Shown in pieces: positions 20,715 to 24,944 of a stretch of 64,000 nt of DNA. The number at the start of each line of letters is the position of its first letter. Position 1 is the first letter of the stretch. The stretch is taken from NCBI GenBank assembly GCA_964291285.2, contig OZ219787.1, forward strand, positions 1,248,001 through 1,312,000, read 5' to 3'. The DNA is from Alphaproteobacteria bacterium (lineage in GTDB: Bacteria > Pseudomonadota > Alphaproteobacteria > Bin95). Made by a program: the position numbers and the translations under genes. Below the pieces are notes generated by a model, which did not search any database, had not been told where the DNA came from, and saw nothing but the letters and a program-made list of their open reading frames with translations.

Positions 20715-20845
20715 GCGCGAGGGGCTCCCGAGTGCAGCCCCAGCCCATAGCAAATCCCGCCCCCGCCCGCCATAGCGCGCGGCCCATGGTAGTGTCTCAC
20801 TTTGACTTTACTGGGCGATCACAAGCCAGATGGAGGTTCCCATGG

Positions 20846-21127
20846 CTACTGAATCGTCGGATCGTTACCGAACATCTCCTGATGCAGGAGGCTCCCTACG
20901 GCTGAAATCAGAAGTTTGCGCATCGTGCGGAGCCGTGCTTTTTCGTCCTCGGACAACGTTGAGGGAAGTGATGCTTCGGTCAGGCGTGACAGAAGATCTG
21001 CTGCGAGAGTTGCACAGCCACGGATTTGGGCGAGTTCTCGAAGAGCTTGCGCCAACTCGAAGATGAACGCGGTCTCGGCGGTGCCGTCGTAGGCCATCTC
21101 GACGATCTTCCGGGTGTCCTCATCCAC
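20846..21127 (-). CDS. hypothetical helical protein (IS cargo)
   Basis: 93 aa, GTG start with GGGAG upstream, overlaps previous stop. Confidence 0.55.
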   Translation of the reverse strand: MDEDTRKIVEMAYDGTAETAFIFELAQALRELAQIRGCATLAADLLSRLTEASLPSTLSEDEKARLRTMRKLLISAVGSLLHQEMFGNDPTIQ

Positions 21128-21347
21128 GGTAGGTCTCCCTCGTGTTCCGGTGCCGTCGGCAGCGCGGCTCGCCGTTCACCGTGTGGGTCGCCCTCGCACC
21201 GCAGGGCATCTCGCCATACGGGCCTGGGGCCGTGCAGCGCGGGCCGGGGTCCGGCCGCTGCTCCGGCCTCGGGGCATTGCGTCCAGCGACCATGCCCAGG
21301 AGGCCGAGCAGCACCGCGCCGCCCACGATGACGATGAGGGTTGTCAT
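21120..21347 (-). CDS. small N-terminal TM protein with C-C-C-H cluster (IS cargo)
   Basis: MTTLIVIVGGAVLLGLLGM...C..C..CRRH; ATGA overlap with transposase stop. Confidence 0.55.
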   Translation of the reverse strand: MTTLIVIVGGAVLLGLLGMVAGRNAPRPEQRPDPGPRCTAPGPYGEMPCGARATHTVNGEPRCRRHRNTRETYRG

Positions 21348-22255
21348 GCGCCGCAGGGATTGTTGCGGGTGCGGTAGCGTGTCCCCTTCGCCGGACCAGG
21401 CTTCTTCGGTGGCGGCGCGGCGGCGTCGATGAGGCCGACGATCCACTCCATGTCGTGCAGGCTCCTGTCCACGCCGGCGGCCATGGCGGGCGTCACCCTG
21501 AGCGTCTTGTGGACCCGCACGAAGTTGTAGAAGCAGAAGAACAGCGAGCTCATGTGGATATGGTTCTCGACCTTCTTGGAGAAGGCGTTGGTGAGCCGCG
21601 TGAACCGGCGCATCCCCATCCGCATGGTGAGGTTGTGGCGCTCGACGTGTGACGTGCTGATCTTCTCCGGCTCGGGCCAGCCCTCGACCGTCTTCTTGAT
21701 GATGCCGACGCACTCCGAAGGCGAGTAGCGTTTGGACGCCTCCTTGCCCGCTTCCAGCACGCCGTAGAGCTTCACGAGCTGGGCATAGTCCACGTCGCCC
21801 CCGAACGCGCCCTCGACGGCTTCCAGATAGGCGGCATGGCCATCCGTGGTCAGTTGCACCCGGTTCACCAGCCGCGAGCGCAGATCGTCCATGAGGTCGA
21901 GGGCAACGTCGGCTTCGCGGGTGCCGAACCGGTAGGACAGGATTATCTTCGAGTCGCTGTCGAGAGCGGTCCATGTCCAGAGGTCGCCCGCGCCTGGGGG
22001 AGGTTTCAGGGCGAAGGGGACGTTCTTCTTCTTGGCGTAGCAGAAGGCCCATATCTCGTCGCACTGGACGTGGCGGGCGTGAACCTCCCGGACTGCCTGG
22101 TCGTGGTGCATGGCGCAGGCATGGCCCGCGTCCACGAGCAGCTTGGAGACGGTGTTGATCGAGACATCCGCGATCCGCGTGATGGCCCGCATCGACACAC
22201 CCTCGACGAGCATGTGGAGGATGTGAGCGCGCTTGGCGGTTGAGAGCTTGTTCAT
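21344..22255 (-). CDS. IS1-family DDE transposase (single ORF, N-terminal HTH)
   Basis: QCDEIW, WTWTALD, LTTDG, STSHVERHNLTMR, RFTRLTNAFSKK. Confidence 0.9.
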   Translation of the reverse strand: MNKLSTAKRAHILHMLVEGVSMRAITRIADVSINTVSKLLVDAGHACAMHHDQAVREVHARHVQCDEIWAFCYAKKKNVPFALKPPPGAGDLWTWTALDSDSKIILSYRFGTREADVALDLMDDLRSRLVNRVQLTTDGHAAYLEAVEGAFGGDVDYAQLVKLYGVLEAGKEASKRYSPSECVGIIKKTVEGWPEPEKISTSHVERHNLTMRMGMRRFTRLTNAFSKKVENHIHMSSLFFCFYNFVRVHKTLRVTPAMAAGVDRSLHDMEWIVGLIDAAAPPPKKPGPAKGTRYRTRNNPCGA

Positions 22256-22262
22256 GGCGTTG

Positions 22263-22310
22263 AAGATAAAGGACGATTGCACACTGTCAAGCACAATGTC
22301 ATTTTATCTT
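22263..22310 (-). promoter_or_regulatory. transposase promoter overlapped by an inverted repeat
   Basis: TTGACA-16-TATCTT, 7 nt before ATG; arms AAGATAAA (22263) and TTTATCTT (22303). Confidence 0.6.
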
Positions 22311-23521
22311 TATGCTGCCATGGGGAGCTGGAGCTTGGCCCGCAGATACTCCATCCCCCGGTCGCCCTTCACGGCGTTGCAGGCGCCGCAGAGGAGTTGG
22401 AGGTTGCTGATGTGGTCGGTCCCGCCCTTGGCCCGCGCAATGATATGGTCCACATGAAAGTGCCGAAGCTCAAAGTGATGCTGGCAGCCTCGGCAGTATC
22501 CCGCCTGTTCGCCGTAAAGGTGACGCTTGTTGTTCGGGTGGTTGTACGGAAGCAGCGGGACTAGGTCCGTGCGCTCCGGCAGATCGGTGCGGACCGTGCC
22601 CTTGAAGAACATGCCCAGCTCGTCACGCATCCGAGTCTGGACAAGCTCGGCAGCCTTCGGGGATATGTCGATCCCCACCCATTGCCGCCCCGCGTCTTGT
22701 GCCGCAACGCACGTTGTTGCGCAGCCGCAGAACGGGTCGAGGATCATGCCGTCGGCCGGGCATGACGAAAGGATGATTCGGCGAAGAAGCGCCAGCGGCT
22801 TCTGTGTCGGGTATCCGGTCTCTTCCTTGCCCTTGGTCGTCGGGAACCATCCCCGGCGGCTGGAAAGCTGCATGATGTCCGACCAGACCGTCGAGAGCGG
22901 CATACCAGGGCTTTCGTCGAGGTATTGGCGGACGATCCCTCCGGCCCGCTGTCGGGTGCGGTAGGGCCTGCCCTTTTCATCCTTGTGCCGGAACCAGCGC
23001 AGATACCTGTCCGTATAGGGCGTGTATTGCCGCGCGTAGAAGTGCTTCCCGTATTCCGAGGCATAGGCCAGAAGACAGTCATGCACCTTCACGGGCTTCT
23101 TGCCGCCGACGCGCCCCCCGGACGGGGTGCCGTAGTTCCACACGATTTCGTTGATGAAGTTCCCGCGCCCGAAAATTGCGTCCATCACCAGCTTCAGGTA
23201 GTGAGACGCGAATTGATTGCAGTGCAGGTAGATGGTGCCGCTCGGCTTCAGCAGGCGGTGCATCTCCAGCAGCCGCGCCGCCATATAGACCAGATACGCC
23301 TTGTCGCTTGCCGTCATGGCGGCGAGCAGAACGCGATACAGGGCCGGGTGCTTCGCCTCGATGAGGTTGATCCACTCGGCGTCCACGTCCGTCAGCGTCC
23401 AGGTATCCTTGAACGCAGCCCCGGCGGCCTTGCTGCCGATGGGCGCGGCGTAGTTGGCTTGCGAGTTGAAAGGCGGGTCGAGATAGATGAGGTCAACCGA
23501 GGCACTGTTCATGCCTCGCAT
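22310..23521 (-). CDS. beta-class N6A/N4C DNA methyltransferase with C-terminal HNH domain
   Basis: IYLDPPF, YPTQKP, DPFCGCAT; CRGC...VDHIIARAKGG...NLQLLCGACN; frame stays open to 23587. Confidence 0.9.
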   Translation of the reverse strand: MRGMNSASVDLIYLDPPFNSQANYAAPIGSKAAGAAFKDTWTLTDVDAEWINLIEAKHPALYRVLLAAMTASDKAYLVYMAARLLEMHRLLKPSGTIYLHCNQFASHYLKLVMDAIFGRGNFINEIVWNYGTPSGGRVGGKKPVKVHDCLLAYASEYGKHFYARQYTPYTDRYLRWFRHKDEKGRPYRTRQRAGGIVRQYLDESPGMPLSTVWSDIMQLSSRRGWFPTTKGKEETGYPTQKPLALLRRIILSSCPADGMILDPFCGCATTCVAAQDAGRQWVGIDISPKAAELVQTRMRDELGMFFKGTVRTDLPERTDLVPLLPYNHPNNKRHLYGEQAGYCRGCQHHFELRHFHVDHIIARAKGGTDHISNLQLLCGACNAVKGDRGMEYLRAKLQLPMAA

Positions 23522-23587
23522 GATGTTCAGATTGTCGCCGGTCCAGACTGTCTGGTTAGCCCAATTCGGACTCCCTGGGGGGGGGTA

Positions 23588-23827
23588 CTACGCTTTGGCA
23601 TCGGCCCACCGCGCTGCCGCCGCGGCCTGGGCGATCTCCTTGCGCCGTTCGGGCGTCATCGCGCGCGCGCGGGCTTTTCCTCCGGCGCGGCCGCCCTTGG
23701 CCTTGTTCGGCTGCCGGGGCTGCTCCTCAAGGGTTTCCTCGATGTCGCCGACTGCGATCTTGCAGACATGCACGGCATTGCTGATCACGTCAGCCGGGCG
23801 CTTCTGCCCCTGCGGTCCTGTGGGCAT
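23588..23827 (-). CDS. small basic protein (KGG-like repeat) of the IS cargo
   Basis: KRPADV..NA, KGGRAGGKARA..TPERRKEIA..AAAARW; GGAGG RBS. Confidence 0.75.
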   Translation of the reverse strand: MPTGPQGQKRPADVISNAVHVCKIAVGDIEETLEEQPRQPNKAKGGRAGGKARARAMTPERRKEIAQAAAAARWADAKA

Positions 23828-23940
23828 CGTCGTTCCTCCTTGCCAGACGCGGCGATGGTATCACCGCTTGGGGACGATGCGAACAGGGTCGATTTGGCCT
23901 CACAAAGTCAAAGTGAGACACTACCCGGCCCATGCCGTCC

Positions 23941-24135
23941 TTGCATTGAGCTTTCTCAGAACGCAGACTGCTTCCCGCAAGCAATACGCGGACACCCGCT
24001 CTGTCGGGCCGCCCGCTGAATAGAACAGCCTGATACCCGGCAAGGGAGTAGCTACCCAGGCCCGGCGAATAGGCGGGGCTTTACGCATCCGCGTGTTGCT
24101 TGCAACGGCCCGACGCCAGCTTCGGGCCTTTGTGT
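23941..24135 (+). ncRNA. candidate structured RNA / leader with its own promoter
   Basis: TTGCAT-17-CAGACT; 16-bp stem 23977-92/24088-103; alternative 9-bp pairing 24003-11/24106-14. Confidence 0.4.
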
Positions 24136-24152
24136 CGAAGCGAGGCGCGGGG

Positions 24153-24944
24153 ATGGCCCAACTGCCTGTCTATGTCATCAATCTCGACCGGCGCCCGGAC
24201 CGGTGGGCGGCGATGTCCGCGCAGCTGGACCGGCTCGGCATCGGGGCGGCGCGCATCCCCGCAATCGACAAGGAGTGCCTGGCGGGCGACCCGGCGCTTC
24301 TCAGGATGGGCGCGGGCCATGTCGCCTGCGCGCGCAGCCACTACAAGGCGATGCAGGCGCTTGTCGATTGCGGAGCGCCCGCCGCGCTCGTCCTCGAAGA
24401 CGATGTCGAGGTCGGCGGGGAAGTCCCGGCGCTTATCGCGTCGCTGGAATGGTGGCCCGGCGAACACGGGCTGGTGAAGCTGCAAAGCACGATCGCGCCC
24501 GACAGGCGGATATGGCTGGGCCCCGCCGTCGGCGCCACGCCGAGCGGCCGCGCCCTCAGGCCGATCATGGGCAGCCACCTGGGCGCATACGGATACCTGA
24601 TCGACCGCGACGCCGCCCTGGAGGCGCTTGAGACCGCCCCGGCGACGCCCATGCCGATCGACCATCTGCTGTTCAATCTCGGCAACTCGCATCTCGCGCA
24701 CAGCCTCGCTCCGCTGCAGATGACGCCGGGCGCAATCCGCCACCTGCCCTACGGGATGTTCGGCTCGGACACCGGAGAGCACCGGGTCGAAGGGCGGAGG
24801 CTCTGGAAGCCCGGCTACGCGACCCGCCTGTCGCTCAAGAAGACATGGATGTGGGCCGCGGCGAGGGGCCGGTGCGAGCGCATCGGCGTCGGATACTGCC
24901 CCGGCCCGAAGGCGAACCGGACCGCCGGGGCCGCGGCCGGGTGA
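24153..24944 (+). CDS. glycosyltransferase family 25
   Basis: YVINLDRRPDR, C..SH, LVLEDD, YLI. Confidence 0.88.
   Translation: MAQLPVYVINLDRRPDRWAAMSAQLDRLGIGAARIPAIDKECLAGDPALLRMGAGHVACARSHYKAMQALVDCGAPAALVLEDDVEVGGEVPALIASLEWWPGEHGLVKLQSTIAPDRRIWLGPAVGATPSGRALRPIMGSHLGAYGYLIDRDAALEALETAPATPMPIDHLLFNLGNSHLAHSLAPLQMTPGAIRHLPYGMFGSDTGEHRVEGRRLWKPGYATRLSLKKTWMWAAARGRCERIGVGYCPGPKANRTAGAAAG

Follow-up and report, generated by a model that had tools for sequence, protein, structure and literature searches.

How can an insertion sequence (IS) multiply in a bacterial chromosome while it carries a gene for an enzyme predicted to methylate and cut DNA? The question is raised by a 3138-bp IS1-family element at positions 20788-23925 of a 64,000-nucleotide stretch of an Alphaproteobacteria bacterium genome (hereafter the window; contig OZ219787.1, G000:C3:1248001-1312000), whose main passenger gene encodes a DNA methylase fused to an HNH nuclease. 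Comparison with related sequences makes it fairly probable, in our judgement, that the element is an active IS carrying, as passenger, a phase-variable gene for a single-chain restriction-modification (R-M) enzyme; the gene would travel mostly OFF, and its product, in the ON state, would methylate host sites and cut unmethylated DNA. The features of the window on which this reading bears are the following.

20780..20787, no strand: target-site duplication, left copy, CGGCCCAT (exact repeat; single copy at the empty site of genome G002)
20788..20809, plus strand: terminal inverted repeat at the transposase-downstream end (first ~18 nt match the ends of relatives)
21344..22255, minus strand: IS1-family DDE transposase of 303 amino acids, a single open reading frame (ORF) with an N-terminal helix-turn-helix (HTH) and the residues D66/D138/E205 (PF03400; InsB alignment)
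22263..22290, minus strand: sigma-70-like promoter TTGACA-16-TATCTT, its end 7 nt upstream of the transposase ATG (from sequence; predicted leaderless mRNA)
22310..23601, minus strand: beta-class DNA methyltransferase with a C-terminal zinc-ribbon HNH nuclease, out of frame here (Pfam, motifs, structure model)
23577..23585, minus strand: poly-C run, C9 on the coding strand (G9), just after the start codon; candidate switch, OFF here (tract comparison)
23588..23827, minus strand: small basic protein of 79 amino acids, the second core gene, its end overlapping the methylase start (kept in 46/56 elements; 521 homologues)
23904..23925, minus strand: terminal inverted repeat at the small-ORF end (complementary to the other end)
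23926..23933, no strand: target-site duplication, right copy, CGGCCCAT (exact repeat)

The identity of the element as an IS1-family transposon is practically certain. Its inverted repeats begin with GGT and are complementary at 22 of 22 positions, the 8-bp duplication is identical on the two sides, and the transposase passes the model PF03400 (DDE_Tnp_IS1; 38.2 bits, cut-off 24.1), in agreement with the initial annotation on the perfect ends, the exact duplication and the family. Membership of IS1595 was ruled out for this transposase (17.3 bits against a cut-off of 75). All five ORFs, encoding the 79-aa basic protein, the methylase-HNH fusion, the transposase and proteins of 75 and 93 amino acids, lie on the minus strand, as annotated. 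The element had also been called intact, which holds for its ends and duplication but not for the methylase-HNH cargo, whose reading frame is broken here. It lies upstream of a serine hydroxymethyltransferase gene and has a GC content of 0.62-0.66 versus ~0.69 for most of the window.

The element is real and active. A search for its end repeat found two further copies in the same genome, and the same ends in 56 of 80 relatives. The three copies in the genome are near-identical: copy A (C3:12088-15226) is one base longer than the window copy and 99.97% identical, and copy B (C3:783416-786481) is 99.90% identical, with a truncated small-ORF end and a 2-bp deletion in the small ORF. Among 16 genomes of the same genus searched for empty sites, the empty junction was seen in G002, G012 and G007, with one base changed in the latter two; in G002 the target CGGCCCAT occurs exactly once. 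Assembled runs from three samples of one study (X1, X2 and X3, of which X1 may be the window's source) showed apparently one copy in X2, at the window's site, and in X3 a copy beside C3:~203 kb, a position that lacks an end repeat in G000. A further run, X4, yielded only pieces of the flanks and one piece of 288 nt and was left aside. Other copies and empty sites thus both exist, and the recent activity proposed in the initial annotation is borne out by the near-identical copies, the empty sites in relatives and the extra occupied site in X3.

The copies also bear on the structure of the chromosome. Copy A has no target duplication of its own, and its left flank is the reverse complement of the outer flank of copy B. 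Because the flanks of A and B adjoin in G011 and in run X3, and G000 lacks the sequence that runs X2 and X3 show ahead of the other flank of A, we infer a ~770 kb inversion between A and B with an adjacent deletion, from intramolecular transposition or inter-copy recombination. Classical IS1 causes adjacent deletion and inversion, as proposed here. One 8-bp target duplication has thus been divided, with one part at copy A and the other at copy B (L081, L082, L172).

What the passenger gene would encode is comparatively clear. The predicted protein passes the Pfam cut-offs for a methylase (PF01555, 131 bits) and an HNH nuclease (PF01844, 46 bits). Its motif order is that of the beta class, with D42-P-P-F before the recognition region and D289-P-F-C-G after it; of 119 homologues, 114 have the DPPF and DPFxG motifs and 112 the HNH motif, and an alignment of 59 sequences shows no change in the catalytic and zinc residues of the HNH domain (D385, H386, N400, N409 and four Cys). 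The central region is less conserved (0.41) than the remainder (0.60-0.78). A structure model (predicted local distance difference test 85.8) gave M.BceJIV, CcrM and EcoP15I Mod, all beta-class adenine methylases, as best matches. No Res helicase-nuclease gene, as in Type III mod/res systems, lies between the element ends. We consider it likely from these motifs that the fusion works as a single-chain R-M enzyme, and lean, with somewhat less assurance, towards a genuine restriction activity. The family is a large one, with 7999 of 8000 scored candidates passing E 1e-30, many of which will be methylase-only. Matches covering 80% of the query number 1 of 4 from plasmids and 0 of 7 from phages, and no plasmid or phage match extends past residue 367.

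Whether this enzyme is made would depend on the poly-C run, which the initial annotation had overlooked. Translation of the methylase probably begins at the ATG at 23601, which overlaps the tail of the small ORF. In the window copy, with its C9 tract, it would end after a 24-aa peptide; with C10, as in copies A and B, it yields 430 amino acids in frame. About two of three tract lengths would be OFF, because only C10 (or 7, 13) reads through. The tract measures 10, 12 and 9 in runs X1, X2 and X3, with C12 as the main path of X2 (depth 471) and C9 as the path of X3, and the long pieces from these runs show only one other substitution inside the element. Such tracts are rare in this 6.1 Mb genome, where only 41 G/C runs of 8 or more occur. 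Three are this element's, and several others sit, at varying lengths, in the leaders of large paralogous surface-type genes.

Relatives show the same arrangement with other repeats. A leader repeat, either poly-C/G of 7-14 or units of 7, 8 or 11 nt, none a multiple of three, was found in nine of 31 methylase-HNH clusters, versus 5/403 coding windows and 2/77 transposase starts, an enrichment whose significance is overstated, the clusters being kin and biased to long-read genomes. Two loci were left out of the count: L124, with A8 upstream of its start, and L111, whose ten 8-nt units fell below the identity filter. Read from starts chosen by eye, 4/15 leaders are in frame and 11/15 out of frame, and ON and OFF copies coexist in G083 and in G062. 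In a tree of N-terminal halves (26 of 30, four having failed the pattern), a single clade was rejected for the nine repeat-bearing rows (approximately unbiased test, p-AU 8.7e-08), which argues for a repeated origin of the leader repeats. Taken together, the tracts make phase variation of the methylase-HNH gene very probable.

The same tree rejects a single clade for the four IS1-borne rows (p-AU 7.7e-05); because the alignment is short (111 columns) and the tree unrooted, it shows mixing and not direction. An IS1- or IS1595-type transposase is present in the fetched locus of 21 of the 31 clusters. The genome of the window itself holds IS1595 elements with a related fusion, in four copies plus one on C5, whose transposase passes the IS1595 model with 183 bits. 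Two copies of one IS1-type element in a single genome, L051 and L052, are 99.9% identical over their last 1459 bp and differ in the central region, and that of L052 resembles the central region of the IS1595-borne L126.

These findings suggest the following course of events. The DDE transposase would be made from its own leaderless promoter and would move the element with 8-bp duplications, its intrachromosomal action giving inversion and adjacent deletion. Translation of the methylase would start at an ATG coupled to the small ORF's end, and slippage of the poly-C run just after that start codon would switch methylase-HNH on and off. Beta-class methylases dimerise, and the ON enzyme would presumably do likewise, recognise its site through the variable central region and methylate host sites, most likely at N6-adenine, while the paired HNH domains would cut unmethylated incoming DNA. 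The OFF state would let the element enter and multiply without cleavage of host DNA, and switching would give the host mixed subpopulations.

Several observations weigh against this reading. Most of the family lacks the repeat: no leader repeat was found in 22 of the 31 clusters, and among the 119 protein homologues 101 have no run, whereas just two have one of proline or glycine in the leader; in the other 16 the called start lies downstream of the conserved one. The kinship and long-read bias of the clusters count here as well. In X1 all three copies are merged in a single C10 contig, so that the C9 of the window copy is unconfirmed, and the run data, being assembled contigs of one study, are blind to switching within a population. 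An in-frame ATG lies 5 nt after the OFF stop, where re-initiation could give a shortened protein, although this would drop the conserved W20-L25. Some relatives are broken inside the gene (L051, L057 and many in G061), which fits decay as well as switching. Lastly, the PADLOC models match the methylase part only.

Part of this evidence could be taken to mean that there is no switch, the differences in the C-run being sequencing or assembly errors, or else one-way decay that removes a toxic cargo. Homopolymers are indeed error-prone, X1 gives no confirmation of the window's C9, the gene is disrupted at other points in many relatives, and most family members lack the repeat. Against it stand the C12 main path of X2, at depth 471, the C9 path of X3, the units of 7, 8 and 11 nt that relatives have at the same spot, and the rejection of a single clade for the repeat-bearing genes; we regard the absence of a switch as highly improbable. 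Nearly as improbable is an addiction module, in which the nuclease would kill cells that lose the element or its methylation. The initial annotation had suggested a defence or addiction unit, of which a defence role would be plausible. As for addiction, cargo of toxin-antitoxin type does occupy the same slot in related elements (Panacea/SocA in eight, PemK, HigB and HEPN in single cases), and R-M genes occur in transposon-like units (PMC2853133). The suggestion of addiction is weakened by the abundance of OFF alleles, with 11/15 leaders out of frame and an apparently lone C12 copy in X2: because such alleles are common, cells survive switching off. Moreover, both activities would be expected to decay together in a fused chain.

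The alternative to which we give more weight, while still thinking it unlikely, is a mobile phasevarion without restriction, in which the fusion mainly methylates and resets host expression, while its HNH domain does no more than nick or bind DNA, or seldom acts at all. In its favour, the regulatory methylase CcrM is among the nearest solved structures, the C-terminal domain is swapped for others in the relatives L101, L107 and L115, and phase-variable methylases change transcription genome-wide (PMC12707154, PMC11868660). What speaks for cleavage is the conservation of the nuclease, with catalytic and zinc residues invariant in the 59 aligned sequences and the motif whole in 112/119, together with the other cargo of the same slot, which is of toxin-antitoxin or defence type. 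A phase-variable single-chain R-M enzyme in an active IS is therefore the reading that we retain.

The element belongs to a group with exchangeable cargo. Of 106 fetched loci with related transposases 80 were kept (two pairs being near-duplicates). Among the 56 that show both ends, an exact 8-bp duplication is present in 45, lengths range from 1.5 to 6.0 kb, and in 25 the stretch downstream of the transposase exceeds 300 bp. The cargo scan covered 143 of 227 called ORFs; 152 were at least 95 amino acids long, and nine of these were dropped as duplicates or likely shadows. Counted by element, the cargo comprised XRE-HTH/IrrE (10), Panacea/SocA (8), SDH protease (5), methylase-HNH (4, in 3 genomes), P63C (3), Bro-N (2) and Fic (2), with single cases of PemK, HigB, HEPN, RhuM, MT-A70, GNAT and NYN; most scanned cargo ORFs had no family. 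Differing cargo between the same ends supports the variable cargo slots of the initial annotation and is the pattern expected of a cassette-shuffling element. Same-genus IS1-type elements with the same ends and different cargo were also seen in G002 (L169, C426:10433-13702) and G011 (L170); L169 carries the small gene and an 8-bp duplication.

One gene travels with the transposase. The small basic gene lies upstream, on the same strand, in 46 of the 56 related elements; because of this retention it is placed, on sequence comparison, with the core of the element and not with its cargo. It has 521 homologues among 537 candidates, with no Pfam family in 51 members and no Protein Data Bank match under E 0.24. 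Its names "RNA-binding protein" and "histone H1" come from automatic annotation and are not read as functions here. An accessory role in end binding or regulation is a guess that we would not quite back at even odds. In G025 a homologue of this gene (51%) occurs close to an IS1595 methylase element (L116:2980-3177).

The remaining two ORFs lie downstream of the transposase.

21120..21347, minus strand: ORF of 75 amino acids, hydrophobic in an N-terminal segment and containing a C-x10-C-x13-C-x2-H motif (from sequence; GC content at third codon positions, GC3, 0.86)
20846..21127, minus strand: hypothetical protein of 93 amino acids, downstream cargo, small family (13 matches)

The ATG of the 75-aa ORF overlaps the transposase stop. 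No family was found for it in Pfam, NCBIfam or PADLOC, and no relative in 400 other genomes, nor a usable Atlas match, larger protein searches not having been run. The 13 matches of the 93-aa ORF consist of 12 proteins of similar length and one 839-aa repeat protein; no Pfam match exceeds the cut-off, and the family was not found in 40 genomes searched, a set without a positive control genome. An antitoxin was rejected for the 93-aa ORF, the HI1420 match (E 0.004) occurring in only 1/13 members. A plus-strand ORF at 20842-21066 was likewise rejected as the downstream gene: it has a good Shine-Dalgarno-like (SD-like) motif but no homologue, and its GC3 is 0.44. The orphan cargo that had been proposed on both sides of the transposase therefore shrinks to the 75-aa ORF, which alone lacks relatives, whereas the small basic ORF is core and the 93-aa ORF has its 13 matches.

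The transposase departs from classical IS1 in several ways. It scores 77 against the full-length NCBIfam IS1 model, below the cut-off of 100. It aligns with InsB of Escherichia coli IS1 at 25% identity over 169 columns (E 1e-07), with D66, D138 and E205 lining up, and these residues are at least 95% conserved among 68 transposases; the D138-E205 spacing is 67 residues versus 25 in InsB, that is 42 extra. The HTH matches at its N-terminus are weak and below their cut-offs. Compared with E. coli IS1A (NC_000913.3), the element shares GGT ends, an alignable catalytic domain and an 8-bp duplication, but has one ORF instead of InsA/InsB and 3138 bp instead of 768 bp. No similarity to InsA was found in the transposase, and the classical InsA/InsB frameshift arrangement is absent. 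Its expression also looks distinctive: a -10-like hexamer lies just upstream of 34/62 related transposase ATGs and an SD-like motif before only 1/62, the opposite of the small gene (-10-like hexamer 1/40, SD-like motif 30/40). This contrast makes it likely that the transposase has a leaderless mRNA of its own, distinct from that of the cargo.

Siguier, Gagnevin and Chandler are said to have described, in 2009, transporter IS (tIS) of the IS1 family, the ISMhu11 group. Members of this group reportedly have no zinc finger, a retained HTH, a longer D-E spacing, a C-terminal extension and passenger genes, methylases reportedly among them. By these features, the transposase described here presumably fits the group. 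The likeness lies in a single DDE transposase without a zinc finger and with HTH kept, and in passengers both upstream and downstream; the conserved small basic core gene and the phase-variable methylase-HNH cargo, which are not known from the group, would set the present element apart. A definition of tIS is given in PMC9330008.

Three published kinds of system resemble the cargo, each in part. Phase-variable Type III mod genes and phasevarions (PMC11868660, PMC12707154) share with it a beta-class methylase, a variable recognition region and a frame-setting 5' simple repeat. Unlike them, the gene described here has no Res helicase partner, its nuclease being a fused HNH domain, and it sits inside a multi-copy IS, with its own tract in each copy. 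Single-chain R-M enzymes of Type IIC/IIG (PMC4081073) likewise unite methylase and nuclease motifs with one recognition region; they combine an N-terminal PD-D/ExK domain with a gamma-class methylase, BtgZI (alpha class) being an exception, and the passages on these types describe no fusion of a beta-class methylase to an HNH at the C-terminus. The beta motif order and the C-terminal HNH, as against a gamma-class methylase with an N-terminal nuclease, rule out a Type IIG identity by the definition given there. Transposon-like R-M units (PMC2853133) also have R-M genes between terminal inverted repeats and an 8-bp target duplication. They were chosen after removal of cases with linked mobility genes, whereas the present element is autonomous, multi-copy and repeat-gated. 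A repeat-gated methylase-HNH gene inside an IS was not found in the literature searched, which did not include ISfinder or REBASE. Passenger-carrying IS and phase-variable methylases are each known; it is their combination that was not found in print.

Related methylases and tracts were encountered elsewhere. An IS1595 element at C3:662489-664913 (L083) has three more copies, one of them at C3:1312203, just past the window end; it carries a related methylase-HNH gene (45-50% identical) with an 11-bp repeat in the leader, and the two copies that were read are out of frame. Another IS1595 element carries separate methylase and HNH genes (C3:1207870-1210444 and two more copies), each copy with a short target duplication. 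At C3:1124061-1126850, an IS1595-like transposase split by a G11 run lies beside a related methylase with a non-HNH C-terminal domain, and a methylase similar to the latter has 21 matches in G025. The genome G061 (loci L126-L153) holds 52 methylase-HNH matches, many of them broken, with at least two different central regions, and the central region at L051:3860-4460 is AT-rich and out of frame. In G000, poly-C runs of 10-16 precede very long paralogous frames with signal-peptide-like starts, likely a phase-variable surface-protein family (C1:426611, 572476, 822642 and 851953; C2:1405537; C4:11323 and 25604; C5:357616).

Around the insertion site, another insertion of ~300 bp with duplicated flanking bases occurs at nearly the same position upstream of glyA in G006 (L158, C1:48775-49078). 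Segments of the flank at 23930-24270 of the window are repeated many times across the genus at 70-90% identity and are possibly small mobile elements. Lone end-repeat-like sequences with 1-4 mismatches and no related transposase nearby, possible relics, lie at C3:964762, C3:228187 and C1:1208924 of G000.

A broader picture may be sketched, which we put forward as speculative and probably not correct in all its parts. The fusion would represent a new class of single-chain R-M enzymes (beta methylase plus HNH) that hops as cargo between IS1 and IS1595 carriers, swaps its recognition region and repeatedly evolves a frameshift catch. Copies would travel OFF and fire stochastically, making up a transposable phasevarion with a dose set by copy number multiplied by tract state. 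The IS1 carrier would constitute a two-gene subfamily, with the small basic protein as an undescribed accessory factor of transposition.

What the locus adds, at the level of samples, is evidence for changes in tract length, for movement of the element and for its rearrangement of the chromosome. If the reading that we prefer is true, an R-M gene travelling as a transposon can spread within a genome and still do no harm when it arrives, since it is off by default. The compact fusion (about 430 amino acids) with its variable recognition region would be a possible source of new specificities, and the expansion of IS would be linked to epigenetic and anti-phage diversity in uncultured bacteria.

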